Positions 1,595 to 64,000 of a DNA stretch of 64,000 nt are shown here, piece by piece. Numbering within the stretch: the first letter of the stretch is position 1; each line of letters opens with the position of its first letter. This stretch comes from Blastocatellia bacterium (lineage in GTDB: Bacteria > Acidobacteriota > Blastocatellia > RBC074). The notes beneath the pieces were generated by a model. The model made no database searches, had not been told where the DNA came from, and saw nothing but the letters and a program-made list of their open reading frames with translations. The stretch lies in contig JANNYF010000012.1 of NCBI GenBank assembly GCA_031409955.1, forward strand, positions 25,927 to 89,926, in the 5' to 3' direction. The position numbers were made by a program, and so were the translations under genes.

Positions 1595-1611
1595 TAGCGC
1601 ACCAACCAACA

Positions 1612-2640: not shown

Positions 2641-2725
2641 GAGTCTGGAGAGTCTGGAGAGTCTGGAGAGTCCTATTGCTGCATGACTCTCCAGACTCTC
2701 TGGACTTTATAGACTCTCTAGACTC
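2638..2725. repeat. Family A repeat filling the lpxD-fabZ intergenic: 3 tandem gagtctggaga units plus a perfect 16-bp inverted repeat
   Basis: gagtctggagagtctggagagtctggagagtc ... gactctccagactctc. The revcomp of the second arm equals the first, which predicts an intercistronic hairpin. Confidence 0.5.
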
Positions 2726-2733
2726 AACCCCTT

Positions 2734-3171: not shown

Positions 3172-3234
3172 ATATGCGGTTTGATAGGTGTGATTGGTTT
3201 GCCTTCCAATCCGCACTCCGCATTCTGCACTCCT

Positions 3235-4005
3235 ATGCTCCATCCCACCGCCATCATCAGCCCCAGCGCCACCATTGGCAACAATGTCTCCATCGGCCCC
3301 TATTCATTGATCGGCGATCACGTCACCTTGCACGATGAAGTCAACATCGCCGGGCACGTCGTCATCGAAGGCCCGTGCGAAATCGGCAGTGGCACCCAGA
3401 TTTTCCCCTTCGCTTCCATCGGACAACCACCACAGGATTTGAAGTTCGCAGGCGAAGAAACCCGCCTCATCATCGGCGAGCGCAACGTGATCCGCGAATA
3501 TGTGACGATGAATCGCGGCACAGCGGGCGGCGGCGGCCTGACTTCGATAGGCAACGACAATTTGTTTATGGCGCAAGCCCACATCGCCCACGATTGTCAC
3601 GTCGGCTCGCACACCGTCTTTGCCAATGCAGGCACGTTAGCCGGTCACGTCGAAGTCGCCGACCACGCCACCATCGGAGCCTACAGCGCCGTGCATCAAT
3701 TCTGTCGTGTTGGGAGGCACGCATTTGTCGGCGGTTTTTCGGTCGTCGTGAAAGACGCGTTGCCCTACGCGCGCACGGTCGGCAATCACGCCAGTTGTTA
3801 CGGCGCGAACGCGATTGGCCTGCGCCGCAAAGGCTTCTCGAACGAAGAAATCCGCCACATCCAACACGCCTTCCACATTTTGCTCACCTCCAAGCTCAAC
3901 ACTACGCAAGCCCTTGAACGATTGAAGGCTGAAATGACGGGGCTGCCAGAGATTGATTACTTGATTGAGTTCATCGAAACTTCGTCGCGCGGCGTGGTCA
4001 AATGA
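3235..4005 (+). CDS. lpxA: Acyl-ACP--UDP-GlcNAc O-acyltransferase
   Basis: MLHPTAIISPSATIGNNVSIGPYSLIGDHV hexapeptide repeats with a LpxA C-terminal helical domain. ATG at 3235 is chosen over the upstream TTG. Confidence 0.9.
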   Translation: MLHPTAIISPSATIGNNVSIGPYSLIGDHVTLHDEVNIAGHVVIEGPCEIGSGTQIFPFASIGQPPQDLKFAGEETRLIIGERNVIREYVTMNRGTAGGGGLTSIGNDNLFMAQAHIAHDCHVGSHTVFANAGTLAGHVEVADHATIGAYSAVHQFCRVGRHAFVGGFSVVVKDALPYARTVGNHASCYGANAIGLRRKGFSNEEIRHIQHAFHILLTSKLNTTQALERLKAEMTGLPEIDYLIEFIETSSRGVVK

Positions 4006-4023
4006 CGCTGCAACCGAAAAGCC

Positions 4024-5052
4024 ATGAAAGCCCCGAAAAATAAAGCTACAACCGAAGCCCCCTCCGATCAGGACAATGCATGGAAAGAGTTGCTTGACCT
4101 GCATTTCCGCGAGTTCATGGAGTTCTTCTTTCCGGCCATTGCTGCTGAAATCAACTGGGCGCGCCAGCCCGTGTTTCTCGACAAAGAATTGCCGAAGCTC
4201 GAACCTGCCAACACGTCGGGCGCGCGCATTGCGGACAAGCTGGCGCAAGTGTGGCGGCTCGATGGTGGCGAAATTTATGTGATGTTGCACAGCGAAATTC
4301 AAGGACGCGCAAGAGCGGAATTCAATCGTCGCATGTACGTGTATAACTACCGCATCAGCGACCGCGACAAAGCGGAAGTCGTGAGCCTCGGCGTCGTCAC
4401 TGGCAGCGTTAAGAATGTTGCGTTGGGACGCTACGAAACCGAACGCTGGGGCTGTCGGTTGGTGTTTGAGTTTCCGGTGGTGAAAATCACAGACTGGCGT
4501 GGGCGCGAAGCAGAACTGGAAAACAGCCGCAATCCGTTTGCGCTGGTGGTGCTGGCACAATTGAAATTGCTGGCAATCAAAGGCAAGCCTGAGCGAAAAT
4601 ACGCGGCGAAACGCGACTTGATGTTGCTGCTCTTGCAAGCAGGTTATAACAAGGACTACATTCGATCCCTGCTGCGCTTCCTGGATTGGATTATCCGCTT
4701 GCCCAAAGAAGTAGAAGCGCAATTGCAATTTGAGATCGAAAAAAAGACGAAAGGAAAAGCTATGCCATACGTGACAAGTTGGGAACGAAGAGGGATGGAA
4801 CGCGGTCAGGAAATTGGTCAGAAAATTGGTCAGAAAATCGGTCAGAAAATCGGAGAAGAGATTGGCAAGGAAAAAGGCCAGAAGGAAATGTTGCTCCAGT
4901 TGCTGAGGTGGAAGTTCGGCGAACTCGAAACGGAAGTCGCCGCCAAAATTGAGCAACTGCCAGTCTCGCGCCTCAACCGATTGGCCAAAGCCTTGCTGAA
5001 TTTTACGAAGCCGACTGACCTGACGCGCTGGCTCGACCGGAATGCAGGTTGA
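4024..5052 (+). CDS. Rpn/YhgA-like PD-(D/E)xK recombination-promoting nuclease (putative transposase family) with C-terminal DUF4351
   Basis: D...EIQ catalytic core (DGGEIYVMLHSEIQ). Internal GQKIGQKIGQKIG tandem peptide repeat encoded by ggtcagaaaatygg x3. C-terminal LLRWKFGELETEV...LTRWL matches DUF4351. The gene is not part of the conserved lpx cluster. Confidence 0.6.
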   Translation: MKAPKNKATTEAPSDQDNAWKELLDLHFREFMEFFFPAIAAEINWARQPVFLDKELPKLEPANTSGARIADKLAQVWRLDGGEIYVMLHSEIQGRARAEFNRRMYVYNYRISDRDKAEVVSLGVVTGSVKNVALGRYETERWGCRLVFEFPVVKITDWRGREAELENSRNPFALVVLAQLKLLAIKGKPERKYAAKRDLMLLLLQAGYNKDYIRSLLRFLDWIIRLPKEVEAQLQFEIEKKTKGKAMPYVTSWERRGMERGQEIGQKIGQKIGQKIGEEIGKEKGQKEMLLQLLRWKFGELETEVAAKIEQLPVSRLNRLAKALLNFTKPTDLTRWLDRNAG

Positions 5053-5107
5053 GATCACGACCACTCAATCCACAGCATACAAATGTTCGCTTTCAGGAGG
5101 AAAATCT

Positions 5108-7363
5108 ATGCAACCCCGTCTGCTTTGTTTGTTTGTTTCACTCTTCACCGTTTCTCTCTTATTCGCTTATCACGGCACGGCCAAAATGGAGATTCTGCAA
5201 GTCGAACTCCAACCACTCGCCGCACAAGCCAAACGCTTGATCGAAACGCTCAATTATCTCGGCGCGCCGCTCAGCAATGCCGATAAACAGGCGCTCGAAC
5301 GCGCGAGTGCGCAAACCGATGCGGCCAACGCGACGCGGCAAATCCAAGACATCCTTGACAAACATTGCCTCTACGAAATTCACATCAACCCGGAAAGTCG
5401 CGTCAAAGTCACACAAGCAAAAGCCAAGCCCGAACTCGTCGAAAACGGTTGGCGCACGTTCCTCATCAAAGTCCACAACGAGGCCGGCGTGACCGCAGAA
5501 CTCAAAGCCGAAAGCACGAATGCGCTGAAAGTTTATGTGGGCAGCAAAGGAAGCCCGAATCCGGCGCAAACCATCAAGCCGAGCGATGTGCGCGACCGCT
5601 GGCTGGATTTGAGTTTGTACACCAAACCGCCGATGAAACCGCAATTATCGGGCTTAAATCTCGAATACAAAATCATTCAACTCTACAGCCGCGATGTCGG
5701 CAAACGCGAAGCCAAAGTCAGTTTCAATGTCGGGCAAGGTTCGCAAGACATCGGCTTTCGCAACGACGCCGATATTTTGTTTACGTGTTTGCCTTCGACT
5801 GAAATTACGTTGAATGTGCTAGACGAAAAAGGTAAGCCAACGACCGCTTCGTTTATCATTCGCGACAAGCTGGGCAACGTGTATCCATCGCAGGCGAAAC
5901 GGCTCGCGCCCGACTTCGCGTTTCATCCGCAGATTTATCGCAGTCACGGCGAGAAGGTGAAATTGCCTGTGGGCGAATACTTGATTGAATTCACGCGCGG
6001 CCCGGAATATTTGGTCAAAACACAAACTGTCAACGTCGTCGCAGGCAGGCCGCAGACGTTGAATTTCAAACTCGAACGCTGGATTGACCTCGCCAAATTA
6101 GGCTGGATTTCGGGCGATCATCACATTCACGCGGCGGGTTGTATGCACTACGAAACGCCGTCGCAGGGCGTGCAGCCCGAGGATATGATGCGCCACATTC
6201 TCGGCGAAGATTTGAAGATCGGCAGCGTGTTGACGTGGGGGCCGTGCTATTACTATCAAAAGCAATTTTTTGAAGCCAAAGATCATAAGCTGTCGCAACC
6301 CGATTACCTGATGCGGTATGACCTGGAAGTCTCCGGCTTTCCGTCGAGCCACGCCGGGCATCTCGTGATGCTGCGGCTGAAAGAGCAGGATTATCCGAAC
6401 ACCAAAGTCATCGAAGATTGGCCGACGTGGGATTTGCCGGTGTTGCAATGGGGCAAAGCCCAAGGCGCAGTCGTCGGCTTTGCGCATTCAGGCTTTGGCT
6501 TAGCAATCAACGCGGACAAATTGCCGAGTTATGAAGTACCCAAGTTTGACGGCATCGGCGCGAATGAATACATCGTAGACGTGACGCACGACGCGGTGGA
6601 TTTCATCTCGACCGTAGACACGCCTGCGCTGTGGGAACTGAACATCTGGTATCACACGTTGAATGTCGGTTTTCGCACGCGCATCAGCGGCGAGACTGAC
6701 TTCCCGTGCATTTACGGCGAGCGGGTTGGCTTGGGTCGCAGCTATGTCAAGCTTGATGGCAAGTTGAATTACGAAGCCTGGGTGGAAGGCATCAAAGCCG
6801 GGCGCAATTACGTGTCCGATGGCAAGAGTCATTTGCTCGACTTTGCCGTCAACGGCGTGCTGATGGGCCTGAACAACAGCGAAGTGAAATTGACAAAGTC
6901 CGAAACCGTGCGCGTGACGGCGAAAGTTGCTGCGCGTTTGGACGCACAACCGAATGACGCGATTCGCAACTTGCGCAAGCCGTTTTGGGATTTGGAACGG
7001 TCGCGCATCGGACAATCACGCGAAGTGCCAGTGGAGTTGATCGTTAACGGGGAAGCGGTGGCGCAGAAAATGATTGTGGCCGATGGTCGCATTCAGGATT
7101 TGCAATTTGAGATTCCGATTGCGAAAAGCAGTTGGGTCGCGCTGCGTGTATTGCCTTCGTCGCACACGAACCCAATCTTCGTCCTCGTCAACAATCAACC
7201 GATTCGCGCATCGCAGCAAAGCGCCGAATGGTGCTTGAAAGCGGTGGATCAATGCTGGACGCAAAAAGCGCCGAAGATTTCGGCCAAGGAGCGCGGTGAT
7301 GCCGAAAAAGCTTACGAGCACGCGCGGCAGGTCTATCAGAAAATTCTCGCCGAAAGTAGGTAG
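5108..7363 (+). CDS. Secreted hypothetical protein, possible PHP/CehA-McbA-like metal-dependent hydrolase
   Basis: RBS aggagg precedes ATG at 5108. Signal peptide MQPRLLCLFVSLFTVSLLFA. GDHHIHAAGCMHY plus later His/Asp motifs (SHAGH, FAHSG, THDAVD) resemble a PHP-domain metal site. The family assignment is tentative. Confidence 0.5.
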   Translation: MQPRLLCLFVSLFTVSLLFAYHGTAKMEILQVELQPLAAQAKRLIETLNYLGAPLSNADKQALERASAQTDAANATRQIQDILDKHCLYEIHINPESRVKVTQAKAKPELVENGWRTFLIKVHNEAGVTAELKAESTNALKVYVGSKGSPNPAQTIKPSDVRDRWLDLSLYTKPPMKPQLSGLNLEYKIIQLYSRDVGKREAKVSFNVGQGSQDIGFRNDADILFTCLPSTEITLNVLDEKGKPTTASFIIRDKLGNVYPSQAKRLAPDFAFHPQIYRSHGEKVKLPVGEYLIEFTRGPEYLVKTQTVNVVAGRPQTLNFKLERWIDLAKLGWISGDHHIHAAGCMHYETPSQGVQPEDMMRHILGEDLKIGSVLTWGPCYYYQKQFFEAKDHKLSQPDYLMRYDLEVSGFPSSHAGHLVMLRLKEQDYPNTKVIEDWPTWDLPVLQWGKAQGAVVGFAHSGFGLAINADKLPSYEVPKFDGIGANEYIVDVTHDAVDFISTVDTPALWELNIWYHTLNVGFRTRISGETDFPCIYGERVGLGRSYVKLDGKLNYEAWVEGIKAGRNYVSDGKSHLLDFAVNGVLMGLNNSEVKLTKSETVRVTAKVAARLDAQPNDAIRNLRKPFWDLERSRIGQSREVPVELIVNGEAVAQKMIVADGRIQDLQFEIPIAKSSWVALRVLPSSHTNPIFVLVNNQPIRASQQSAEWCLKAVDQCWTQKAPKISAKERGDAEKAYEHARQVYQKILAESR

Positions 7364-7442
7364 CTTCTTTGCTCTTCCGAAAAGTCGGAGTACTATCCAG
7401 CCAAGCGGCTAAAATTCAACAAACTGAATACTGGAGGAACCC

Positions 7443-10400
7443 ATGCGTTTATTAACCCTGCTCGCGCTCCTTTGCTGTTGCCACTTGGCCTTTGCCCAAA
7501 CCAATGCAGCCCTTTCTGGCACAGTCACCGATAAAACCGAAGCAATGATTCCTGGGGCGACCATCATCGCCGAACACGTTAAGACAGGCGTCAAAAACAC
7601 GACGACTTCGAACGATTCAGGCGTGTACTCGTTTCCGACGTTGCAACCGGGCGTGTACCAAATCTCAGCAGAAAAACCAGGCTTCAAGAAATTGGTCATG
7701 ACGAATTTCGGCTTGGAAATCTCGGCGCGCGCGAGCCTCAATCTGGCGCTCGAAGTTGGCGAGATTACGGAAAGCTCTGTCAACATCAGTGCCGCTGTTG
7801 ATACCGCGCTGGCGCTCGGCACAAATTCTGTGGGCGGCGTCATCAATGGACAGAAGGTGCAAGAACTGCCCTTGCCCGGACGCGATGCGTTGGGCTTGGT
7901 GTTGACCCAGGCGGGGCTGGTGGGCAGCAACTTTGCGGGCGCGCGCATCGGCACGCTGAACGTCTCGCGCAACGGCATCAATGTGATGGATCAGCGCATC
8001 AATTCCGGCGTGAACTCTACGTTTTTTAATAGCGTGGATACAGTGGATGAAGTCAAAGTTATTACGTCCCCCGCTGACGCCGAATACGGGCGCGGCTCCG
8101 GGCAGGTTCTGATTACGACCAAATCCGGCGGCAATCAATTTCACGGCAGCGTCTTCAACTTTCATCGCAATACCGCGCTGAATGCTAACACGTGGTTCAA
8201 TAACCTGCAGGGCATTCCGCGCAATACGTTGATTCGCAATAATTATGGCGGACGATTGGGCGGTCCGATCTGGTTTCCCAAGAAAGCCTTTGGCCCCATG
8301 AACTATGACGGACGCAATCGCAGCTTCTTCTTCGTTGCCTTTGAAGGCACGCGCGAACGAGCGAAAGCACCAACGACGGTCACTGTCTTCACACCAACGG
8401 CCAAACAGGGAATTTACCGCTTTTATCCTGGCGTCCGAAACGGCAATGCCAATGCGGCGGTGCCGACCGTTGATTTGTCCGGGAATCCGATCAAGCCCGC
8501 AACAGCGACAGGCGACTTGCAAGCCATCAACCTCTTTGGACGTGATCCGCTGCGTTCGCGTCCTGATCCCACGGGGCTGGTGCAAAAACAACTGGCCGCG
8601 ATGGCACTTCCGAATAACTATCGCTTTGGTGATGGGCTGAACACCGCTGGGTATACGTGGGTGCGACCCTTCACGTTTGATTCCAATCAATTGACGATGC
8701 GCTTCGATCATCAATTCACCTCGAGTCATCGCGTCTCGGTGGAATACCTGCGCGAAACAAATGGCGGATTGAATCAATTCCTGGCGCAACCGTTGCCGGA
8801 TTCGCCGGGCGGGTCGTATCAAGACAACACGAATTTTTATTCGATCTCGTACATTGCTACGCTTTCGCCCCGGTTAGTCAACGAAGTACGCGGCGGTGCT
8901 TCCCGCACATTGATTCGCTTTGAAGCGCCGTGGGAGTCGTCAAGCGGGCGTGCTTTTTTACCCTCGTCAAATAATCAAATCTATGTGCCGGTCTACCTTT
9001 CGGTCACGACGCCCATCAATCAAAGCAACGATCCGCAAGGCCGGATTTCGCCTCTCTATCAATACAGCGACACAATCACCTGGTTGCGCGGCAAGCACAA
9101 TTTCAAAGGTGGCGCAGAGGTTCGCTTTGCCAGCACGAACGGCTTTAATTCCTTTACGGTGTTGCCGCGTGCGGCGATTGGAGTGGGCGGCCCTGCCATT
9201 ACCAATATTTCCACTATCCCAAACATTGGATTGAATTTGGGAGGGGCGCAAAACATGCTGAATGATTTGACCGGCTCGCTCTCGACGATTCAACAAGCCT
9301 TCAATTCGCCCGGCGGACAATCCCCGACCTTCCTCGCTGGCGAAGGCAAACAACGCACGTGGCGGCAGCGTGAATTCAGTTTGTTTTTCAAAGACGATTA
9401 CAAAGTGAGACCAAATCTGACGCTGAATCTGGGCGTGCGTTACGAATATTACGGCGTTCCGTGGGAGGCCAACGGCAAGACGGCGGGACTCGTCAATGGC
9501 TCCGCTGGCATCTTCGGAATTTCCGGGACAGGCTTTGCCGATTTGTATCAACCGGGCCGCAACAACGGGCAATTGACGCAAATCAAATTGGTCGGCAAAA
9601 AATCGCCGAATGGGGGCGAACAACTCTACCGTGACGATTGGAATAATTTTGCGCCAGCGGTCGGATTGAGTTGGTCACTGCCGTGGTTGGGACGAGATAA
9701 GACGGTACTGCGCGTGGGCTACGGTATTGGATATGAACGCAATTCGCTGCGGTTATTGGATGTCGTCGCGGGCGATCAACCGGGCTTGCGCACGGTGACG
9801 ACTTTTCGGCAAACCGCCTATCTGGATTTGTCCAAAGTGGTCTTGCCGCTCACGCCCGACGTGGCCCCGTTGACGACTGTGCCGTTGACGGATCGCACAC
9901 AAACTGTCCGCGCATTTGATTCCAACCTGCGCACCCCGTATGTCCAGAATTGGAATCTCTCGATCCAGCGCCAATTGTCATCCAACTTCGCGTTGGATGT
10001 ACGGTATGTCGGCAACAAAGGGACCAAGCTGATTCGCGGCGCGAATATCAACGAAGCCAATATCTTTGAGACGGGGATTCTGGAAGCCTTCAATGCCGTG
10101 CGCGCAGGCGGGACGCATCCATTTTTGGAAAACATGTTTCGCGGTTTGAATCTCGGTTCTGGTGCTATCAACGGTACAACGGTTACAGCAGGGCAATCGC
10201 TCCGCGCTAGCACGCAAACGCAAGGGTTTTTTGCGAACGGCAATGTAGGCGGTTTTGCCAACTTCGTGAACAGCACCAATCTGTTCACGGGCGTGGCGGG
10301 AGGGTTGTTGCGCCGCGCAGATTTGCCGGAAAACTTTATCGTTGGCAATCCGCAATTCGCAGCGGCGAATCTGACGGGGAACTACGCGAACTCCACCTAT

Positions 10401-51411: not shown

Positions 51412-54018
51412 ATGCGGCACGTCAATCAACTCATCGCAGTTCTTCTCGTCTTCTCGTTAACCCTTCCAATTACCGCCCAAAAGCCCGCGCGCGCCATCGA
51501 AACGCCCGGCCAAAAAGCGTCTGGGATGCTGTTGCCCAACGGCTGGACGCTGACGCCGGAAGGCAAACAAATCCCGATCAGCGATTTGCCGATGAATATG
51601 GAATTGAGCGCGGATGGGCGCTATTTGCTGGTCACGACGAATGGTAACGGTGTGCAGGAAGTGGACGTCATTGATGTGCAGACGCAGCAACTGTTGCAGC
51701 AAATCGAAGTCAAAAAATCCTGGCTCGGTCTGGCGTTCGCACCCGATGGCAAACGCTTTTTTGTGTCGGGTGGAGATGACAACGAAGTGCTGATCTTCAA
51801 CTTTGCGGCAGGCAAGGCAACGGCGGCGGGCAAGATCAATCTGGGCAGCAACGAATTTCACGCGATGGACAATCGCCAACGTGCCGCTGCTCGCAATGCA
51901 GGCAAGGGCGAATTCGCGTTTCCCGCTGGCATCGCCGCGACACCGGATGGCAAACGGTTGTTTGTCGCGGAAAACCTCTCGCACAAAGTTGCCGTCGTTG
52001 ATCTGGCAACCAATCAAGTCCTTACGAAAATTGCGGTCGGCGAATACCCTTACGATGTCACGATTGCGCGCGATGGCAAGCGTGTCTATGTCAGCAATTG
52101 GGGCGCACGCAGTGTGGCGGTGATTGATCCGAACACCAATCAAGTCCTCGGCAACATTGCCACGGGCGATCATCCGAATGATTTGGAATTGACGCGCAAT
52201 GGCAAACTGCTCTACGTCGCCAACGCGAACAGCAATTCAGTTTCTGTGTTGGACACCGCACAGATGAAAGAGCTGGAAGCGATCAATACCGCGCTGCATC
52301 CGAAATCGCCCATCGGCAGCACGCCCAACGCCGTCGCGCTTTCGCCCGATGAAAAGACGCTCTACATCGCCAACGCCGACAACAACAACGTCACCATCGT
52401 AGATGTCAGTAAGCGCAGCGCGAGCAAGGTCAAAGGCTTCATTCCGACGGGTTGGTATCCGACTTCTGTGCGCGTCAGTAAAACGACCAAACAGATTTTT
52501 GTCGCCAATGGCAAAGGCACAGCATCGGCGGCGAATCCGAAAGGGCCGCAACCGTTACCCGGTCAGTCGCGCGCCGAAAACAAAGAGGTGCAATACATCG
52601 GTAGCTTGCTCAAAGGCACTGTTTCGCTGATTGATCTGCCAGGCAATACGAAGCTCGCGCAACTGACCAAACAAACGTACGCAAATTCGCCGTACACCGA
52701 CGAATTGCTCAAGCAAGCGCGTGCGCCCAAAGCCGGGACAGCGATTCCGACCAATGTTGGCGGGGCTTCGCCGCTCAAACACGTCATTTATATCATCAAG
52801 GAAAATCGCACCTACGATCAAGTTCTCGGCGATATGCCCGAAGGCAATGGTGATCCGAATCTGTGTTTGTTCCCCGAAGAAATCACGCCCAATCAACACG
52901 CGTTGGCGCGCGAATTCGTGTTGCTCGATAACTTTTATGTGGATGCCGAAGTCTCTGCGGACGGACACAATTGGTCAACCGCAGCTTATGCGACGGACTA
53001 CGTTGAGAAAACCTGGCCGACGAATTATTCGGCGCGCGGTCGCACTTACGATTACGAAGGCAGCAAGAAGGTCTCGCGTCCGACCAAAGGTTACATCTGG
53101 GATTATTGCAAAGCGGCAGGCGTGAGTTATCGCAGCTACGGCGAATTCATCGGCGTGCGCGATGTCAAAATCGGTGGCGGCAGCGGCAATGAAGCGCCCA
53201 CGGCGGCGGCGGTGCGCGCGCAGCGTGAAAATTATACCAGTGAAGAAGCCCTGCTCGGTCATTTCAGCCCGAACTATCCGTCGTACAATTTGGGGATTAC
53301 CGACAACACCCGCGTAGATCGCTGGCTGGAAGAGTTTCGGGCCTACGAACAGAACAACCAACTGCCGCAATTTCAAATCGTGCGCCTGGGCAACAACCAC
53401 ACCGAAGGCACTACGCCCGGCAAGAAAACCCCGCGCGCCCACGTCGCCGACAACGACCTCGCCGTCGGGCGTTTGGTTGAGGCCGTGAGTGCCAGTAAAT
53501 ACTGGGCGACGACCGCCATCTTCATCATCGAAGACGATGCCCAGAACGGCCCCGATCACGTAGACGCGCACCGCTCGCCCGCCTTTGTCATCAGCCCATA
53601 CACGAAACGCAAATTCGTAGATTCGACGATGTATACCGGTTCCAGCATGTTGCGCACAATGGAGTTGGTTTTAGGTTTGCCGCCGATGAGTCAATACGAT
53701 GCCGCCGCGATTCCCATGTTCAATTCGTTCACGAACACGGCTGATTTGACGGCCTACAAAAAGCGCGACGCGCGTGTTGACCTCAATGAAATCAATGCTC
53801 CGAACGCGCCCGGCGCACAGAAATCTGCGAGCTGGGATTTCAGCAAAGAAGACACGCTCCCCGACATTGAATTCAACGAAGTGATTTGGAAATCAGTGAA
53901 AGGCGCAAACTCTGCGATGCCCGCGCCCGTGCGCAGCGCGTTTGTGCGCGTGATTGATGATGATGACGAAGAAGAGGAAGAAGCACGACGCGAGAAAAAA
54001 GCGCGCCGCCGCAAGTAA
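51412..54018 (+). CDS. Secreted fusion: YVTN/lactonase-like 7-bladed beta-propeller plus phosphoesterase family domain (phospholipase C / acid phosphatase AcpA family)
   Basis: RBS caggagc. Signal peptide. Repeated ...DGKRLFV..N....V.VID... propeller blades. C-terminal HVIYIIKENRTYDQVLGD phosphoesterase signature. Acidic/basic tail (EEEEEARREKKARRRK). Confidence 0.8.
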   Translation: MRHVNQLIAVLLVFSLTLPITAQKPARAIETPGQKASGMLLPNGWTLTPEGKQIPISDLPMNMELSADGRYLLVTTNGNGVQEVDVIDVQTQQLLQQIEVKKSWLGLAFAPDGKRFFVSGGDDNEVLIFNFAAGKATAAGKINLGSNEFHAMDNRQRAAARNAGKGEFAFPAGIAATPDGKRLFVAENLSHKVAVVDLATNQVLTKIAVGEYPYDVTIARDGKRVYVSNWGARSVAVIDPNTNQVLGNIATGDHPNDLELTRNGKLLYVANANSNSVSVLDTAQMKELEAINTALHPKSPIGSTPNAVALSPDEKTLYIANADNNNVTIVDVSKRSASKVKGFIPTGWYPTSVRVSKTTKQIFVANGKGTASAANPKGPQPLPGQSRAENKEVQYIGSLLKGTVSLIDLPGNTKLAQLTKQTYANSPYTDELLKQARAPKAGTAIPTNVGGASPLKHVIYIIKENRTYDQVLGDMPEGNGDPNLCLFPEEITPNQHALAREFVLLDNFYVDAEVSADGHNWSTAAYATDYVEKTWPTNYSARGRTYDYEGSKKVSRPTKGYIWDYCKAAGVSYRSYGEFIGVRDVKIGGGSGNEAPTAAAVRAQRENYTSEEALLGHFSPNYPSYNLGITDNTRVDRWLEEFRAYEQNNQLPQFQIVRLGNNHTEGTTPGKKTPRAHVADNDLAVGRLVEAVSASKYWATTAIFIIEDDAQNGPDHVDAHRSPAFVISPYTKRKFVDSTMYTGSSMLRTMELVLGLPPMSQYDAAAIPMFNSFTNTADLTAYKKRDARVDLNEINAPNAPGAQKSASWDFSKEDTLPDIEFNEVIWKSVKGANSAMPAPVRSAFVRVIDDDDEEEEEARREKKARRRK

Positions 54019-54475
54019 GGAACATGTAAAAAATAACTTGTCACAACGGACAGGCGACTGGAGCAGGCGACTGGAGCGCAAGCGTCCCGCATGCCGAGCG
54101 CGCCCGAGCGTCGCTCGCCTACGTGCTGAGGGAATCTCTTCAACTTCGGCAGATTCCCTCACCAAATGATCTGCTTCGCTATCGCTTGCAAATGGCAAGC
54201 GGGGACGCCCCGCGCTCCAGTCTGACAAGCCATTTTCTTACCTCCCGATCCCACCGACAGCGACTGAACCTCGAATCCGTTTTTGGGACGACTGCTTCCC
54301 GAAAGCGGACACTGTTGATGGCTCACACCTGAGCGATCAACCCGCGCCAATTTGCCACGAGGCTCTATTGACACACCGTTGCGCGAAGCTCGCCAACCCC
54401 TACCCCATCCATTCATGACTGGCACGCTGTTTGATTTACCTCACTAGAAACATCACAAGGAGTGTCATCAATTTT

Positions 54476-56878
54476 ATGTGGAAAGACTTCAAATATGCCG
54501 TGCGAATGTTGCGCACGAAACCGACCTTCACCCTAACCGCTGTGTTGTCGCTGGCGCTCGGCATCGGCGCTTGCACCGCGATTTTCAGCATCGTGGATGC
54601 TGTGTTGCTGCGTGCGCTGCCGTACCCGGAGGCGGAGCGCATCATGCAAATCCGCGAAGTTAACGAGAAAGGCATTCGCATTCCCGTCGCTGAGCCGAAC
54701 TATCAGGACGTGCGCACGCGCCAGCAGAGCCTCGCCGCCATCGCGCAATTTGCTGGCGGCGGAGTCGTCGTCACGGGGGGCAAGGAACCCGTGCGTTCCC
54801 GCGCGTTTTGGGTCAGTGGCGATTTCTTTTCAGTGTTTGGAACCAAGCCAGTCATGGGGCGCGGCTTTCTGCCGGAAGAATCGAAGTCGGGCGCGGGCGC
54901 TTATGTCGCCGTCGTCAGCCACGGATTCTGGCAACGCGTGCTGGGCGGCAAGCCTGATTTCAGCGGCATGAAAATTAATGTGGACGGCCCGGCGTTTACG
55001 GTGATTGGCGTGATGCCGCCCGGTTTCAGTTATCCGAAAGACGCCGACATCTGGGTGCCGCGTGAAGTCGAACCGCCGCAAGCTTCACGCACCGCACACA
55101 ATTGGTCAGTCGTGGCGCGAGTGCGACCGGATGTGACGCTGGAACAAGCGCGCGCCGACCTCAACAATATTGGCGCACAACTGCGCCAGGAACACGGCAA
55201 GGGCGTTGATTTGACGGGGCTGGCAATGATCCCGCTGCAAGAATATCTGACCGACAATGTGCGCAGCGGCTTGCAATTGCTGCTCGCGGCGGTCGCCTTA
55301 TTGCTACTGGTCGCGTGCGCGAACGTCGCCAATATGATTCTGGCAGATGCAACGACCCGCACTTCGGAATTCGCTGTGCGTGCGGCAATGGGCGCGACGC
55401 CGTGGCGGATGATGCGACAATTCATCACCGAAAACTTGTTGCTGACGCTGCTCGCCGGAGCGATGGGAATACTGCTTTCCTTTTGGGGCTTGGATGTTTT
55501 GTTGAGTCTCAATGCCGACAATTTGCCGCGTGTGGACGAGATCGCCATCAATGGACGTGCGCTGAGCTTCACGCTGGGTCTGGCGTTTGCTGTTGCCATC
55601 GTTCTGGGCATCGTTCCGGTGGCGCGGCTTGTCTATGCTGATTTGCACACCAGCCTGAAAGAAGCGGGGCGCAGCGTGGCTTCGGGTGGGTTCAGCCAAC
55701 GCATGCGTCATGCCTTGGTTGTGGCGCAAATCGCGTTGACGCTTGTGCTGTTAATTGGCGCAGGGTTGATCGGGCGCACCTTCCTGAAGCTGATGCAAAC
55801 TGATCCGGGCTTCAAGCCGGAAAGTGCGGTCGTGATGACACTCACGTCGCCGACTACGTTGACGAAAGAGCAGGAACAGCGTTTACAGCAACAGAACGAA
55901 GCTTTGCTGGAAACCCTCACGCAACTGCCCGGCGCGCTTGCTGTCGGTAGTATGAGCGCCTTGCCGCTGACGGGGCGCGGGGGCAATGGCACATTCCTGA
56001 AAGACAACAACCAAGCCACAACAGGGCAGGCGGAATATCGTTTGGCGAGCGGCGGCTATTTTTCAGCGATGGGCATTCCGTTATTGCGCGGTCGTTTCTT
56101 TGCGTCGAGCGATACCGGCGCTGTGCCTGATGCAGCGGTCATCAGTCAATCGCTGGCGCAAAAATACTGGCCGAACGAAGACCCCATCGGACACACCATT
56201 CAATTCGGCAATATGGATGGCGACAAAGATTTGTTGCACATCGTCGGCATTGTGGGAGATGTCCGCGACGATGGTTTGGATCAGCCCGCGCAACCGACCG
56301 TGTACGCGCACGCGCTGCAACGTCCGCAATGGTGGCAGGTCTCGAACCAATCGTATGTTGTGCGTGCGCAAACCGATCCACAAGCCTTGATCGCCACGCT
56401 GCGCAGTACAACGCAAGCACTCAACCCGGATGCACTGCTGCGCTTTCAAACGCTGGACGCCGTCGTGTCCGAATCGCTCAACACGCGCCGCTTCAGTCTG
56501 GTGCTCTTCGGCGTTTTTGCTGCCGTAGCATTGCTGCTGGCGGCTACAGGCGTCTACGGTGTGATGAGCTACAGCGTGACACAGCGCACGCACGAAATTG
56601 GCGTGCGGCTGGCACTGGGGGCGCAGGGGCGTGATGTTTTGCGACTGGTCATTTGGCAGGGAATGAAATGGGCGCTGATCGGCGTCGTGCTGGGGATCGG
56701 CGGAGCCTTCGCTGCCACGCGTTTGATGGCGACGATGGTCCATGGCGTGACGACAACTGACCCGTGGACATTCACCGGAGCGGCGATTTTATTGGCTGCG
56801 GTGGCACTGCTGGCTTGTTACCTTCCGGCGCGGCGGGCAACGAAAGTTGATCCCATGATGGCGCTACGTTGTGAGTAG
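54476..56878 (+). CDS. ADOP-family (acidobacterial duplicated orphan permease) FtsX/MacB-like ABC permease
   Basis: RBS aaggag. [33 protein letters not shown]-terminus. Two FtsX-type 4-TM modules, each preceded by a periplasmic MacB_PCD-like domain. C-terminal [15 protein letters not shown]. Confidence 0.85.
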
Positions 56879-56879
56879 A

Positions 56880-56960
56880 CGGTGGTCGGTGGTTGGTGAT
56901 TGGTGGCTGGTCAGTCTTTTACCGACCGCTAACCACCGACCACCGACCACCATTTCAGGA
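56880..56960. repeat. Family C hairpin repeat (GGTCGGTGG units) between ADOP permease genes
   Basis: ggtggtcggtggttggtgattggtggctggtcag ... ctaaccaccgaccaccgaccacc. Same family as 15148-15246. Confidence 0.5.
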
Positions 56961-56966
56961 GAATCT

Positions 56967-59405
56967 ATGCAAACCCTCTTACAAGACCTGCGCTACGGCG
57001 TGCGAATGTTATGGAAGAACCCTGGTTTCACCTTGATTGTCGTCATGATCCTCGCGCTCGGTATCGGCGCGAATACGACGATTTTTAGCAATGTGGATGC
57101 GACGCTGCTCAGGCCTTTTTCATTTTCGAATCAGGAACGGCTGGTCGTGCTCTTTGAGCAAAAGCCGTCCATCGGCATCACGCAGGCAAAAATTTCGCCG
57201 GGCAATGTCATCGAGTGGCGCGCCCAGTCGCAAACCCTGCAAGAGGTCGTCGTGATGCGTAATCGCGAATACACGCTGATGAGCGATGGACCGGCGGAAC
57301 GCTACATGAGTTACGGTGTGTCAGCCGCATTCTTCGATGCGCTCGGCGTCAAGCCTTTACTGGGCCGTACCTTTCAGCCCGGCGAAGATGAAGCCGGGCG
57401 CGCGCAGGTTGCGGTGCTGCGGCACGCCTTCTGGCAAACACGCTTTGGCGGCGATCCGAATATTGTCGGTAAGCAACTCCTGCTTGATGATAAACCGTTC
57501 ATCGTAATCGGCGTGATGGCGAAGAATTTTGATTTTCCGTTTGGCGGGGGCGAGATGTGGACGCCGTTCGTCTTTGACCCGCAGATGAAGCAGGATCACA
57601 GTGGCCATTATCTGAGCGTGCTGGCGCTGCTCAAACCGGGCGTGACCGTGGCACAGGCCAATGCCGAACTCGATCAAATCTCGCAACGCATTGAGCAAAA
57701 GTATCCGAATGATGAAGCCGGACACAGCGCTTATGCGGTCGCTGTCAATGACGAGTACACGCGCGGAGCCAAAATGTATTTGCCGATCTCAATTGGCTCA
57801 GTGATCTTCGTGCTGCTGATTGCCTGCTCGAATGTCGCCAATCTGCTGCTGGTGCGCGCGTCGGCGCGGCAGAAAGAAATGGCCGTGCGGCTGGCGCTGG
57901 GCGCGACGCGCTGGCGGCTAATGCGCCAGTTGCTGACCGAGAGCGTGCTGCTCGCGCTTGCGGGGGGAACGCTGGGAATCTTGCTGGCGAACTGGGGCAT
58001 TGAAGCCGTGATCAGAGGCGTTCCCACCGCCCTGTCGAAATACATTCCCGGCTGGAACCATCTGGGACTCAGCTACCGCGTGCTGGGGTTCACCATCTTG
58101 ATCTCAGTTCTGACTGGCGTGATTTTTGGTTTAGTTCCTGCGCTGCAAGCGACCAGAACCAATCTGAATGAAACGCTCAAAGAGGGCGGCGGCAAAGGAG
58201 CATCGGACAAGGGGAGCAGAGGCGGGCCGTTCTCAATGCGCAATGTGTTGGTTGTGGCTGAGATTGCCTTGTCACTGGTTTTGTTGATTGGCGCAGGGTT
58301 GTTTGTGCGCAGCTTTATTCAGATGCTCCGCACGGATCTGGGCGTCAAAGCCGACAATGTCATGACAATGAATGTGGCGTTGCCGCGCGACAAATATCCT
58401 GACCCGCAACAGTACCGCAATTTCTTTGGGCAGTTGATCGAACGCAGCGCCGCCCTGCCCGGCGTTACAAATGTCGGGGCTGTCCACTCCTTACCGATGA
58501 GCGGTGGTAGCGATGTCAATAGATTTCAGATCGTTGGCCAACCTGCTTTTGAGAATGGCAAAGAGCCGCACACGGATTTTCGTATCGCCACACCGGATTA
58601 CTTCGCGGCCATTGGCACTGAGTTGCGCCAAGGCCGGTTATTCGCTGCGCAGGACGATGCGCAGGCACCCCGCGTGGTGTTGGCGAATGAAGCTTTTGTG
58701 GCGCGCTTTTTGAAAAGTGGGGATGCCATTGGCAAACGCATCACCATGGGCAGCGACAAAGAGAAGGCGATGGAAATCATCGGCGTCGTCACCAATGTGA
58801 TGAACGAGGATTTGGATAATCTGACAGAGCCGTGCGTCTATTTGCCCTTCGCGCAAAATCCGGTTGCCCGCCTGAGTCTGGTGATTCGAGCGCCAGGTAC
58901 ACATACCCAGCTTGTGCCCGCCGTGCGCCGTGAATTGACTGTGCTTGATCCGCGCTTGCCGTTGTCGGAAGTGAAAACGATGGAGCAGGTGATTGACGAA
59001 CGCCGCTCGCCGCTGAAGATGATGATGTGGATGTTGGTGATCTTTGGGCTGATGGCACTGGCAATGGCGGCGGTCGGAACGTATGCAGTGATGGCTTACG
59101 CTGTGGCGCAGCGCACCCACGAAATCGGCGTACGTGTCGCGCTCGGAGCGCAAACCAGTGACATTCTCAAACTGGTATTGCGGCGCGGTCTGTCGCTGGC
59201 CCTCGTCGGCATCGGCCTGGGATTGGCGGGAGCGTTCGCGTTGACACGGGCGTTAGCGCAACTGTTGTACGGCGTGACGGCAACCGACGCACTGACGTTT
59301 ACGAGCGTCACTCTGCTGCTCGCCGCCGTCGCGGTGCTGGCTTGTTGGATACCAGCACGACGAGCCACAAAAGTAGACCCGATGATTGCGCTTCGGTGTG
59401 AATGA
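56967..59405 (+). CDS. ADOP-family FtsX/MacB-like ABC permease (second tandem paralog)
   Basis: RBS caggagaa. [35 protein letters not shown]. Same duplicated architecture. C-terminal [15 protein letters not shown]. Confidence 0.85.
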
Positions 59406-59501
59406 TGAACTCGGAACGAGGAAGGATGAAGGAAGGAACAAGGATCGCTTAGTGATTCATCGCTCATCAATCAGCCTTCCTCATTTTCTTTGGGAGAATC
59501 T

Positions 59502-61910
59502 ATGCAAACCTTATTACAAGACCTGCGCTATGGGGCGCGAACGTTACGCAGAAAGCCTGGCTTCACGTTGATCGCGGTGCTGACACTGGCGCTCGGCATT
59601 GGCGCGAACACGGCGATTTTCAGCGTCGTGAATGCGCTCGTATTTCGGTCACTGCCATTCCAGGACGCGGGGCGGCTCGTGTGGATTGCGAATGTCCATG
59701 AAGGCGGGCTGTCGGGGCAGACGACGCGCGTCAGCAATTACCAGGACTGGCGCACGCGCAATCAATCGTTTGCAGACATCGCGGCCTATTACGCGTTCTC
59801 GGATTACGAAAGCTTCAATCTGACGGGCGGCGGCGAGCCGGAGCGGTTGATGGGCTATTTCGTGACGCAGAATTTTCTGGGGCTGCTGGGCGTGCAGCCC
59901 ATGCTTGGACGCGGTTTCGATGCGGATGAAAGTCGCATCAATGGGCGGAAAGCCGTGATGCTCAGCTATGGATTTTGGCAGCGGCGCTATGGCGGTGACG
60001 CGAAGATCGTTGGGCAAACGATCACGCTGAAAGATCAAGCTACGCTGGTGGTGGGCGTCTTGCCGCCGAGCTTTGATTTTGCTTCGATGTTCACGCCGGG
60101 CGCGCGGGTAGACCTGATCGCACCGTTCCCGGTCAGCAAAGAAACTGATCGGATGGGCAATACGCTGGCCGTCATCGGCAGGCTGAAACCGAGCGTCAAC
60201 ATTTCACAGGCACAGGCAGAATTCGATGCACTCAATCAGCAATTGAAACAAGCGTACCCGGAACGCGGGGCGGATTTTGGCGCACGTCTGACAGGCCTAC
60301 AGCAACAGATCAATGGACGCTTTCAGCGCGGCTTGTGGGTGCTGTTTGCGGCGGTCGGCTGTGTGCTGTTGATTGCCTGCGCCAATCTGTCGAATCTGAT
60401 GCTGGTGCGCGCATCTTCGCGACGGAAGGAGATTGCGTTGCGGCTCGCACTTGGTGCCACGCGTTGGCGATTGGTGCGCCAGATGCTGACCGAAAGCGTT
60501 TTGCTGGCGGCGGGTGGCGCGATAATTGGCTTGCCGTTGGCACTGTTCGCTACAGAAGCCATTGCGTCAACCACTTCGTTTAGCCTTCCGCTGCTGCAAA
60601 CGATCAAGGTGGATATGACGGCGCTGCTGTTCACACTGGCTGTCACGGTCGGCACGGGGCTGCTCTTTGGCGTGATGCCCGCGTCGCAAGCGACGGGAAC
60701 GAATGTGCAGAAAGACTTGCAGGACGCGACGCGTGGCTCAAGCGAAGGCAAGCAGAGTGGACGGTTGCGCGATGTGCTGGTCGTTGCCGAAATCGCGCTG
60801 GCGTGTGTGCTGTTGATTGGCGCAGGTTTGCTAATTCGCAGTTTCTGGCAAGTGCTGCAAACCGATCCCGGTTTTCGTGCCGAACAGACGGCAGTCTGGC
60901 GCATTGAGCCGGGGCGAAAGTATTCAACCGCTGCGCAAGTCATGGCGCTGTACACCACGCTTACCGAACGCGTCGCCGCGCTCCCTGGAGTCGTATCCGT
61001 CGGCCTGACCGATACGCTGCCGCTCGGACGCAATCGTAGCTGGGACGTGCGCGTCAAAGGCCAGGCTCCGCGCGAAGGCGTAGACGTATTTCCGCGCATG
61101 ATTGATCCCGGCTATTTCAAAACAATGAATATCGCCTTGCGCACTGGGCGCGACTTCACGAAATTCGATACCGACAAAACGGAACAGGTGATGATTCTCA
61201 GCGAAGCCCTCGCCCAACGTTTGTTTCCCGGTCAGGACGCCATCGGACGCCAAACTGTGACGGGCAACCGCGAATATCGCGTGCTCGGCGTCGTGAGCAA
61301 CGTGCGGCACAGTTCGCTTGAAGCAGCAGCCGAACCAGAAATGTATTTCCCGTTGGCACAAGCTACGCAAGGTTCCGTCGAAATGGTCGTGCGCACCACG
61401 CAGCCACCGGAAGCGATGGCTTCAGAGATTCAACGCGCCCTACAATCCGTGGACGCGAATTTGCCTGTGCGTGACTTTCGCACGCTGGAAGGTATCGTCG
61501 CGCAATCGGTTTCGCCTCGGCGTTTTGTGATGCTGTTGCTGGGCGGATTTGCGGGGCTGGCGTTGTTGCTGGCGGCGCTGGGGATTTACGGTGTGATTTC
61601 TTTTTCCGTCGCGCAACGCACACAGGAAATCGGCATTCGCCTCGCGTTGGGCGCACAGGCCGCTGACGTGCTGAAGCTGGTGATGGGGCAGGGCGCAAAG
61701 TTGATCTTCAGCGGAGTGGCATTGGGTCTACTGATGGCGTTCTTGTTGGCACAGGTGATGCGCAGCATGTTGTTTGGCGTGAGCGCGACCGACCCCCTGA
61801 CCTTCGGTATGATTGCGCTGTTGTTGACGATAGTTGCGCTGCTGGCTTGTTATCTACCAGCCCGCCGCGCGACGAAGGTTGATCCAATGATTGCGTTGCG
61901 GTGCGAATAA
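59502..61910 (+). CDS. ADOP-family FtsX/MacB-like ABC permease (third tandem paralog)
   Basis: RBS gggagaa. [35 protein letters not shown]. The 5' end is nearly identical to the previous paralog at nucleotide level. Confidence 0.85.
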
Positions 61911-61954
61911 TTGAAGTCTGTCACCTACTCGTGGCAGGATTCCAGGCGGATTGG

Positions 61955-62104
61955 CTATACCTGGTTTGCAGCTACGATCCGCCGGATGGCGGGTTCAAGC
62001 GCGGGCAAGTCCTCGGTGGCCGTTTTCCATTCGACCACCAGATTCACGCCAAAGTAGTTATGGGTGAGCTTGTCACGCATCCCGCCATTGCCCGCCCTGG
62101 CGCT
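61955..62104 (-). pseudogene. Truncated HEPN (DUF86) toxin gene: C-terminal fragment only
   Basis: Minus-strand frame encodes ...GMRDKLTHNYFGVNLVVEWKTATEDLPALEPAIRRIVAANQV*, with an R-x(4)-H HEPN motif in DUF86 context. The frame is closed by a TGA only about 8 codons upstream of the Met, so the N-terminal half is missing. Sits immediately downstream of an MNT gene, as in HEPN/MNT modules. Confidence 0.5.
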
Positions 62105-62148
62105 TCAGAATAAGCGTCTCGCACGGAAGCCGGAATCTGCTTCGTAAC

Positions 62149-62421
62149 TCATACTTGCACGACCTCGGCAAGAATCCGCTGGCCCAGCACCGGTTTCAGC
62201 GCCTCTTGCATGACCAGATCAACTTTGATTTCCAACAGGTCTGTCAGGTAATTCTCCAACGCGACGAATTGCAACAGGCCCGGCGGTTCATCGAAGGTTA
62301 TTAACAGGTCTAGATCGCTATCCGGGCGCTCTTCGTGGCGGACATACGAGCCAAAGACACCCAATGATTTCACCCGAAATCTTTCCGCCAGTGACGGCAA
62401 GCACTGCTGAAGCTTCGCCAT
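62149..62421 (-). CDS. Minimal nucleotidyltransferase (MNT) antitoxin-type protein
   Basis: GVFGSYVRHEERPDSDLDLLI (G-S...D.D) nucleotidyltransferase signature, about 90 aa from MAKLQQ. Confidence 0.7.
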   Translation of the reverse strand: MAKLQQCLPSLAERFRVKSLGVFGSYVRHEERPDSDLDLLITFDEPPGLLQFVALENYLTDLLEIKVDLVMQEALKPVLGQRILAEVVQV

Positions 62422-62536
62422 GATGCTGATGAGATCAGTTTGTTTAGACAGCAATGGCTCGGTTTCGATTGGAATCGTTGGTATAACACGCGGCTCCTTG
62501 TGATTGACACGGCAATGATAAACCACGTGTCAGACT

Positions 62537-62814
62537 TTGGCGAATTTCAATTGCCGTGCCGCTCGTGACGTGATGAATGAAGGCTGGATGAGCCGCTTGG
62601 GCTACGACCTGACGCAGCGCGTGAAAGACGCCATCGAAGTCTTCAAGCTGAACACGAAAGACTACCCGCAATCAGCGAACGTGGGGGACAGTCTGGGCGA
62701 GGCGTATCTGGACGATGGGAAGAAGGAATTGGCATCAAGAATTTTCAGCGTGTGGTCGAACTTGATCCGCAGAATGCAGGCGCGGTTGAGGCGCTGAAGA
62801 AACTTAGAGAGTAA
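62537..62814 (+). pseudogene. TPR-repeat protein C-terminal fragment with frameshift
   Basis: ...DAIEVFKLNTKDYPQSANVGDSLGEAYLDDGKKELA in one frame continues as IKNFQRVVELDPQNAGAVEALKKLRE* in another. No credible N-terminal domain. Confidence 0.35.
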
Positions 62815-62834
62815 GAGTGAGAGCAATTAGCTGG

Positions 62835-64000
62835 TCAGGCAAGCATAGATTCCTGAATCACCAGAATTGGTTCAATGAATCTCTTCAGTTCTTCCTTCTG
62901 CTCTACTAAGAATGGTGCATCTTTGACCTTGGAGTGGAGATTGAGTAGGCGCTTTTCAGCACGGTTGAGAATTGTGTCGTAAAGCATGGGAATTATTTTT
63001 ACTTCCTCGCCTTCCTTTCTAGGTTCCTCTTCACCAGCTTCAATCTCATCACCAAGAACGAATCCATCAACTCGGGTGGTCTTGCGGATATGTCCCTTCG
63101 ACTTCAGTTCCTTCACATACTTCCAAACTTGCTCTTTTTCCTTGGAACCCAATGGCAAGCCGGTTGTTTTGAGGTCGACAATAACAACATGCTCAACACC
63201 GTCTTCGTTGTAATTATCATCGTACGAAGAACGGGCATAGAAGCCAGCACTGCCATCTGGCAAAACAACAAAGTCTGGGCGGTTCCGAGATCCCTTACCT
63301 TTCTTGTCTCCAAAAAGCTCACGAATGACAGTAGTCATACCTCTATTAGAAGTAAACTCAATTGATTCAAACTGAGGGCCAAACATCCACAAGCCTTTTT
63401 CGAATAAGGGCTGTAGCTCGTGGACTTCATCAATGCCTACGATTTTAAGCTTTTCTTTCAACTCACTGATTAGCTTGAGTCTGTTCTGGATTTCGTCCAA
63501 CACAATTTTGGCCATCCCAATAGTCCATTGGGTCAGAACTTCATGGAGTGCATCCAGATCATGCGGGTCTTGGTTGTGAAGCAACTCCAGAAGTCCATAC
63601 CTAGACTTGGCTTTCTCAAGCTTGGTTAGAATTGAAGTTAGTTGCACGATTTCCTGCTCTCCAAAGTTTGGGCATTTATCTACAACCTCGTTCACAAACC
63701 CTTCAACCCTGTCCTTGCTCAGCGGGGGTAAGCTGTTGACTTCTCCCCCAACCTTTTCAATGACAGACTGTCGTTTTGTCTCTCTCTCGGCTTTATTACT
63801 TTGAAAAATAATGTCCCGAATCTTGTCTTGAACGATTGGCCTGACAGTGTTCCAAATCGCATTGTCTTCTTTGAACCATGACCAGTCTTCAAGAACCGCG
63901 TTGGCTTCATTAAGAAAATCCGCCTGGACAATGAAAGTGTAGCGCTTTGCCTCAGAAGTTCTGCCGTCCAGAATTCGCTCGAAGTCACTGCCCCGCCATT
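62835..64000 (-). CDS. Partial (5'-truncated by window edge) PD-(D/E)xK nuclease-family protein, possibly defence-related; lies in AT-richer DNA
   Basis: The frame stays open from 64000 to the stop at 62835, so the GTG at 63695 in the ORF track is not the real start. C-terminal region carries RPDFVVLPDG ... VVIVDLKTTG ... QVWKY (PD...(D/E)xK...QxxxY) preceded by ELQPLFEKGLWMFGPQFE. Base composition is visibly lower in GC than the rest of the window. Confidence 0.55.
   Translation of the reverse strand, partial: WRGSDFERILDGRTSEAKRYTFIVQADFLNEANAVLEDWSWFKEDNAIWNTVRPIVQDKIRDIIFQSNKAERETKRQSVIEKVGGEVNSLPPLSKDRVEGFVNEVVDKCPNFGEQEIVQLTSILTKLEKAKSRYGLLELLHNQDPHDLDALHEVLTQWTIGMAKIVLDEIQNRLKLISELKEKLKIVGIDEVHELQPLFEKGLWMFGPQFESIEFTSNRGMTTVIRELFGDKKGKGSRNRPDFVVLPDGSAGFYARSSYDDNYNEDGVEHVVIVDLKTTGLPLGSKEKEQVWKYVKELKSKGHIRKTTRVDGFVLGDEIEAGEEEPRKEGEEVKIIPMLYDTILNRAEKRLLNLHSKVKDAPFLVEQKEELKRFIEPILVIQESMLA

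Follow-up and report, generated by a model that had tools for sequence, protein, structure and literature searches.

VcSduA, a 673-amino-acid (aa) protein that joins a GHKL ATPase to a nuclease, is encoded in the VSP-II island of the WASA lineage of Vibrio cholerae and is classed as a type I-D Shedu protein; its single gene suffices to shield both E. coli and V. cholerae against phage attack (Adams et al., 2025; PMC12137116). Either of the substitutions E27A and K557A abolishes defence, and protection was seen at all multiplicities of infection tested, which the authors read as direct restriction of the phage with survival of the host cell (PMC12137116). Shedu homologues that carry HATPase_c_3 together with an Hsp90/MORC-like 'N24' middle domain have been placed in type 1D Shedu (Gu et al., 2023). 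A similar arrangement had been described under the name paraMORC3, for GHKL+S5 proteins that bear an extra C-terminal domain of the restriction-endonuclease fold with E-D-ExK motifs (Iyer, Abhiman and Aravind, 2008; PMC2292703). Many paraMORC3 proteins stand alone, and their genes are laterally mobile and sporadic in proteobacteria and Bacteroidetes (PMC2292703). Here we compare with these systems a gene at the end of a 64,000-nucleotide stretch of DNA from Blastocatellia bacterium (contig JANNYF010000012.1, positions 25,927 to 89,926; hereafter the window), where a long minus-strand open reading frame (ORF) runs off the last base. We conclude, with a probability of about 0.72, that this ORF is the rear of a stand-alone, horizontally acquired 643-aa GHKL-nuclease gene of the paraMORC3 / type I-D Shedu kind.

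Completion and domain architecture of the gene

Six-frame translation of positions 61901-64000 reveals, in minus-strand frame 2, a 387-aa ORF that extends from 63998 to a stop codon at 62835-62837 and is still open at 64000. The original prediction, made from the letters of the window, had described this frame as carrying PD...(D/E)xK...QxxxY nuclease motifs. Both the frame and the three strings RPDFVVLPDG, VVIVDLKTTG and QVWKY are indeed present, and the residues concerned are conserved in relatives, as described below. Because the fragment matched no family in Pfam, PADLOC or NCBIfam, homologues were fetched by searching 5.8 billion proteins with it, and 1207 relatives were found. The best of these (termed P0001) has 643 aa and is 100% identical to the fragment across all 387 residues. 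Its contig (termed L001), 3350 bases long and derived from a different sequencing run, has no mismatches with the window across 1383 bases and adds 1967 bases past position 64000. The full gene occupies window-equivalent positions 62835-64766 and is intact across 643 codons, with all catalytic residues present. The window itself holds the 3′ 60% of the gene (62835-64000, minus strand), which encodes residues 257-643 and the stop codon.

It had also been suggested that the nuclease was the effector of an anti-phage system whose remainder lay beyond the window. The gene does continue there, as L001 demonstrates, and what the continuation encodes is the GHKL ATPase and middle domain of the same protein rather than further system genes. 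Next outward from the nuclease gene comes a gene resembling OmdA/YdeI (E 6.7e-24), whose G+C (GC) content of 0.546 is that of the host.

From its N-terminus to its C-terminus, the complete protein consists of a GHKL ATPase, a middle domain like that of Hsp90/MORC, a helical linker and a PD-(D/E)xK nuclease. Residues 24-133 of P0001 match HATPase_c_3 (E 3.8e-16), and a profile of the family, searched against the sequences of the PDB, matches the N-terminal domains of Mlh1, MutL, Hsp90 and MORC. GHKL motifs I-IV are intact, which is a defining trait of type I-D Shedu and VcSduA-like GHKL-nucleases. In a first AlphaFold2 (AF2) run, for which 50 close homologues (70-88% identity) were used, residues 20-340 of P0001 were modelled with a predicted local distance difference test score (pLDDT) of ~90. 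Foldseek aligns the model with the ATPase-plus-middle modules of Hsp90/TRAP1 and MORC2/3/4 in the PDB (E ~2e-12, ~380-470 columns). The model therefore predicts the GHKL-associated middle domain (Hsp90/MORC/topoisomerase-like, 'N24') by which type I-D Shedu is also recognized. According to the full-length model and Foldseek, the C-terminal end of this Hsp90/MORC/S5-like domain, residues 257-302, is encoded within the window at 63861-64000 (minus strand).

Residues ~303-440 are helical in the full-length AF2 model and would connect the middle domain to the nuclease; this linker, encoded at 63450-63860 (minus strand), aligns with the helical region of the VcSduA family. The PD-(D/E)xK nuclease domain follows at ~residues 440-620 (62907-63449, minus strand) and retains the conserved catalytic residues that type I-D Shedu proteins have at their C-terminus. 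A second model of the nuclease, built with 128 diverse sequences, reached a pLDDT of 78.8 (81-95 in the core), and as modelled the domain appears to resemble solved SduA, a likeness expected of Shedu members.

An exhaustive HMMER scan over 1.84 billion representatives yielded 523 clusters (50% identity), and for 223 of these E was below 1e-30. Nearly all full-length members have 615-705 aa and the same layout. When conservation was measured in 92 diverse members (28-58% identity), nine residues of GHKL motifs I-III in the ATPase half proved invariant (E30, N34, D37, D60, G62, G64, R100, G107 and G109), and G104 was at least 90% conserved. The invariant residues of the nuclease half are R429, E447, L459, W460, R496, D498, K533 and Y550, with P497, (D/E)531 and Q546 at least 90% conserved, a pattern that reads as the classical E...PD...(D/E)xK...QxxxY signature. 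On the minus strand of the window, the corresponding codons lie at 63426-63428 (E447), 63273-63275 (D498), 63174-63176 (D531), 63168-63170 (K533), 63129-63131 (Q546) and 63117-63119 (Y550). Forty-six C-termini of the family, scanned singly against Pfam, gave sub-threshold matches almost solely to PD-(D/E)xK families: 13 matched HSDR_N_2, 11 matched SduA_C weakly (best E 6.4e-4), and Cas4, Uma2, VRR_NUC, YhcG_C, NucS_C and PDDEXK_3 were each matched by one or two.

Relationship to Shedu, paraMORC3 and GHKL-bearing restriction enzymes

The family of the window gene was compared with that of VcSduA by profile-profile alignment. The first 399 residues of VcSduA were taken from the supplement of the bioRxiv preprint, and the full sequence is termed P0396. 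Alignment with hhalign gave a probability of 92.2% (E 5.9e-7); its 502 collinear columns run from GHKL motif II as far as the C-terminus and pair RPDF with EPDL, IVELK with VVEIK, and Q..Y with Q..Y. K533 aligns with K535 of P0396, which is K557 of VcSduA in the published numbering, and both essential residues of VcSduA have counterparts in the window protein, E30 for E27 and K533 for K557. Both proteins are the products of single genes, have ~650 aa and the same order of domains, stand alone and are laterally mobile. They differ in that a HATPase_c_3 match is clear for the window-gene family and missing for VcSduA in the same scan; moreover, not one of the 543 published hits of the VcSduA model contains the N-terminal hallmark strings of the window-gene family. 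The window protein would thus be a remote relative of VcSduA, to judge from these alignments, and not a close member of its family. VcSduA itself (P0396) has no match to SduA_C or HATPase_c_3 in Pfam (E <= 1) and none in NCBIfam (E <= 0.1). As these profile libraries miss even VcSduA, both GHKL-nuclease families are under-detected.

The resemblance to paraMORC3 comprises the GHKL+S5 module, the C-terminal domain of restriction-endonuclease fold with E-D-ExK, the stand-alone gene and the patchy distribution. It was established from the published description, and the window protein may belong to the same set, to the family of VcSduA or to a sister group. Canonical Shedu (SduA of Bacillus cereus, 8ti8/8ti9, and of E. 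coli, 8ps4) is more distant, in that the window protein has an N-terminal ATPase in place of the canonical sensor domain and is missed by the SduA_C profile, which matches members of its family weakly. The suggestion that the nuclease might be of Shedu/DUF4263 type or similar was therefore apt as to kind, on the evidence of fold and profile-profile comparison, while the profiles it had named, DUF4263/SduA_C, Cap4/DUF4297 and NERD, gave no match. Cap4/DUF4297 and NERD were rejected as identities of the window protein on this ground. The family is an uncharacterised member of a known architecture and not a new kind of protein.

Over residues 27-205 of P0001 (window-equivalent ~64150-64690), the nearest named sequence relative is BbrUII/HgiDII (NF050001, E 6.4e-21), which likewise contains a GHKL ATPase domain and whose profile, with 659 positions, is of similar length. 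The protein could accordingly be imagined as a Type II or modification-dependent restriction endonuclease like BbrUII/HgiDII, with its methyltransferase encoded elsewhere or with modified DNA as its target, instead of a Shedu-like sensor-nuclease. We regard this as unlikely. The NF050001 match reaches 74.5 bits where the cut-off is 550 and is limited to the GHKL part; no methyltransferase adjoins the window gene or lies within 4 kb around it; the restriction-modification (R-M) systems that adjoin its relatives are complete in themselves and of differing types; and the match that is collinear over the full length is that to VcSduA. Two PADLOC REase_II models also match P0001 weakly. Together with the BbrUII/HgiDII match, they hint that GHKL-bearing restriction enzymes may be linked to GHKL-Shedu proteins, and the family might represent an evolutionary bridge between such enzymes and Shedu.

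Because the ATPase domain lies nearer to the one in BbrUII/HgiDII than to the one in VcSduA, the protein could use a different trigger or a different rule for telling self from non-self. It is conceivable, if rather doubtful, that the ~520 clusters constitute a distinct GHKL ATPase-nuclease immune lineage that departs from known Shedu in one of these respects, for example by using ATP to clamp onto DNA of a particular structure or modification.

For a GHKL-nuclease of the paraMORC3 / type I-D Shedu kind, we infer by analogy an anti-phage function, control of the nuclease by ATP, and DNA as the substrate. On the model of VcSduA and of GHKL enzymes in general, the protein would dimerise through its ATPase heads, and the middle domains would make up a clamp around DNA that opens and closes as ATP is bound and hydrolysed. 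The clamp would in turn gate the nuclease, which may cut invading phage or plasmid DNA at a centre formed by E447, D498, D531-x-K533, Q546 and Y550.

Lateral spread and genomic contexts

The original prediction envisaged an AT-rich, horizontally acquired islet and proposed that its composition be measured. In 500-base windows, GC content is 0.56-0.52 over 61750-62749 and 0.45-0.46 from ~62750 onward, so the predicted drop is real and begins at ~62750, not immediately after the third of the upstream permease genes as had been stated. Measured as a whole, the complete nuclease gene is atypical both in GC content (0.452, compared with 0.549 +/- 0.018 in equal-sized windows; z -5.3) and in tetranucleotide distance (z +10.6 relative to the window's own spread). 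Its GC content at third codon positions (GC3) is 0.466, compared with 0.65-0.675 in the flanking genes. The foreign composition is confined to the nuclease gene. The neighbouring MNT gene deviates mildly (GC 0.513, GC3 0.60), and this gene and the HepT and TPR remnants described below are near host composition. What had been seen as an island is a ~2.1-kb foreign gene, and the short gap in which it sits contains older debris as well.

The nuclease gene was acquired horizontally. In three other high-GC hosts, its relatives have a GC content of 0.43-0.50 between flanks of 0.56-0.59. The window gene is 72-88% identical to genes of Betaproteobacteria and of a methanotroph, and such identity across unrelated classes points to recent lateral spread. 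Full-length relatives with 44-49% identity reside on eight plasmids. No tRNA gene was found as a sign of insertion, nor were direct or inverted repeats of at least 10 bases found flanking the nuclease gene.

These data bear on whether the gene encodes a MutL-like housekeeping factor for DNA repair or recombination in the host. Profiles of the MutL N-terminus do match the ATPase domain (TIGR00585, E 3.3e-9; Mlh1; MutL), in a span of just ~55 residues around the ATP-binding motif. A housekeeping role is scarcely credible for a gene with foreign composition, 72-88% identity across unrelated classes, carriage on plasmids and variable neighbourhoods in defence islands.

We examined eleven further loci that carry relatives, nine chromosomal and two on plasmids. 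The flanking genes vary between them and are mostly defence or mobile genes, and the relatives are met in defence islands and on plasmids. In an ADOP-rich genome (L002), a TIR gene lies upstream and a DUF4365 gene downstream. The neighbours in Collimonas (L003/L004) are NOV_C, a canonical SduA_C gene and the Kiwa genes KwaA/KwaB, and those in Delftia (L005-L008) a Type III R-M system, an AAA_13 ATPase and PIN7. A resolvase is present in Jeongeupia (L009); a Type ISP R-M system, HNH and MobC in Ralstonia (L010); and a Gp49/HI1420 toxin-antitoxin pair and DUF3800 in Sulfuriferula (L012). One metagenomic contig (L013) carries H-NS, a Type I methylase with its S subunit, and an integrase fragment; the other (L011) is considered below. 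The Tritonibacter plasmid NZ_CP136706 (L014, locus 6017-9441) has the gene between two recombinase genes and beside an AbiEii/AbiGii nucleotidyltransferase toxin, and on the Agrobacterium Ti plasmid pTi_CFBP2177 (L015, locus 5983-8592) it adjoins a HepT-like gene. Mobile and often met in defence islands, the GHKL-nuclease gene stands alone, with no conserved partner.

Several of these loci have features of their own. The dense defence island of Collimonas arenae (L003, CP009962; 4327-5181, 10043-11529) also includes an H-NS gene and a D5-type primase, and in it a canonical SduA_C (Shedu) gene and the GHKL-nuclease gene coexist within 3 kb. The two plasmid members adjoin toxin or abortive-infection genes, an arrangement that echoes the MNT/HepT remnant beside the window gene. 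Just upstream in the window (54000-61910) are tandem MacB_PCD/FtsX 'ADOP' permease genes, and the homologue in L002, which is 88% identical, likewise lies among several ADOP genes (182-8418) with different immediate neighbours (TIR and DUF4365). The probable defence gene has entered similar genomes at spots that are not syntenic.

Immediately downstream of the gene, the eleven loci have mutually unrelated genes, except for a 249-aa ORF common to Delftia and Ralstonia (9947-10696 in L005, also in L006-L008, and 9947-10696 in L010). This ORF overlaps the stop of the GHKL-nuclease gene by 4 bp, and the Delftia and Ralstonia copies are 72% identical; the Delftia copy, the one that was scanned, has no Pfam match. 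It may be a partner specific to a subclade. Its overlap and conservation, and the fact that most paraMORCs sit in R-M operons with SF2 helicases (Iyer et al., 2008; PMC2292703), would suit a component of a multi-gene paraMORC/MORC-type system whose helicase, methylase or small partner has been lost or unlinked, leaving a gene that is inactive alone. We consider this decidedly improbable, since neither the window nor any other locus examined has the 249-aa ORF, the neighbours otherwise have nothing in common, the nuclease-bearing paraMORC3 genes stand alone (PMC2292703), and VcSduA works as a single gene (PMC12137116). Of the genes that lie downstream in other loci (DUF4365, the 249-aa ORF, those for 317 aa and 325 aa, KwaA and TIR), no decayed copies were detected in the window (tblastn E > 0.1).

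Several results weigh against identifying the gene as a horizontally acquired GHKL-nuclease of the paraMORC3 / type I-D Shedu kind. The GHKL half is not part of the window, and its sequence comes solely from the identical overlapping contig L001. BLASTP of P0001 against VcSduA was not significant (E 0.98), which is why profile-profile comparison was used. Pfam SduA_C (PF14082, no match at E <= 1), the PADLOC Shedu models and NCBIfam all miss the protein, and the PADLOC scan that had been proposed as a check returned no Shedu match for either the window protein or P0001. The first full-length model was of low confidence in the nuclease domain (pLDDT 30-65) and unusable there because the alignment was too shallow. 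Foldseek of the second nuclease model gave no match at E <= 1e-3, and the nuclease-domain profile, searched against PDB sequences, met no solved structure and just a chance ribosomal-protein match. Among the neighbourhoods, the metagenomic contig L011 has metabolic genes on both sides and only a PIN/PhdYeFM toxin-antitoxin pair ~6 kb upstream. Finally, the gene occurs in none of 50,697 phage records, a result that is uninformative either way on defence.

Decayed genes beside the nuclease gene

The last of the permease genes upstream, the third 'ADOP' gene of MacB/FtsX type (MacB_PCD 1e-39, FtsX 2.5e-29), ends at 61910. Between it and the nuclease gene, the original prediction had recognised an intact MNT antitoxin, a HEPN (DUF86) partner reduced to its C-terminal half with the R-x4-H motif, and a frameshifted TPR tail. 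The MNT nucleotidyltransferase gene (62149-62526, minus strand) is intact as predicted and antitoxin-like, with matches to NTP_transf_2 (E 7.7e-14), Polbeta (E 4.4e-12) and PADLOC PDC-S09 (E 2.8e-25); its score against the NCBIfam equivalog MntA_antitoxin is 48.3 bits, below the cut-off of 60. The ORF as listed starts at a GTG located 36 codons upstream of the region covered by the MNT profile, and the ATG at 62421 is likely to be the true start.

Downstream on the same strand lies the HepT/HEPN (DUF86) remnant (61955-62104, with its stop at 61955-61957). Its 49-aa stretch (62104-61958) does keep the R-x4-H motif (RDKLTH), and it corresponds to positions 85-120 of the 120 of the HepT-like profile (E 2.8e-8), or about the last third rather than half. 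An in-frame stop lies just upstream of the remnant, which is ~45 bases from the MNT stop; these features, with only the end of the profile left, indicate that ~70% of the toxin gene was deleted. The order of an MNT gene followed by a same-strand HepT-like frame with an R-x4-H motif is that of MntA-HepT type VII modules, from which the locus differs in that, with ~70% of HepT missing, the pair can no longer serve as a toxin-antitoxin module. The MNT gene, its HepT partner deleted, is an orphan of antitoxin type and could still be expressed.

The third element, convergent with the nuclease gene, is the 3′ remnant of a TPR gene (62537-62814, plus strand). The uncorrected ORF has no match, and the TPR assignment holds only once a +1 frame change near 62737-62749 is repaired. 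The repaired frame matches TPR_2 (E 3.3e-5; 24.1 bits, cut-off 27), TPR_1 and TPR_8, all under their gathering scores, and NCBIfam TPR families weakly. Neither the 5′ part of the TPR gene nor paralogues of the MNT, HepT or TPR gene are present elsewhere in the window. The MNT gene together with the HepT stub represents a type VII toxin-antitoxin pair that is now dead, and the TPR stub the tail end of a host gene that was truncated; this debris is no part of the nuclease system and has no link to the nuclease gene beyond the gap between host genes that they share.

Given such neighbours, the whole stretch could be non-functional debris in which the nuclease gene is a recently arrived passenger, silent or decaying. 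The HepT stub and the frameshifted TPR tail would be consistent with this, as would the failure to find promoter or terminator signals above chance. For the nuclease gene it is nevertheless very improbable, as the ORF is intact across its 643 codons, retains every catalytic residue and is identical in an independent sequencing run.

The local picture is that of a lone foreign gene, probably for defence, in a small gap between host genes, beside a dead toxin-antitoxin pair. For annotation, the appropriate correction is from 'ATP-binding protein' to Shedu-like GHKL-nuclease. Single-protein defence by a GHKL-nuclease has one validated example, VcSduA, to which the window adds a large and widely transferred sister family of the same architecture. 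This family is flagged neither by PADLOC-DB 2.0.0 or Pfam SduA_C nor in the published VcSduA hit list, and is therefore probably under-counted in inventories of defence genes. It is also a candidate for the study of how an ATPase gates a nuclease.

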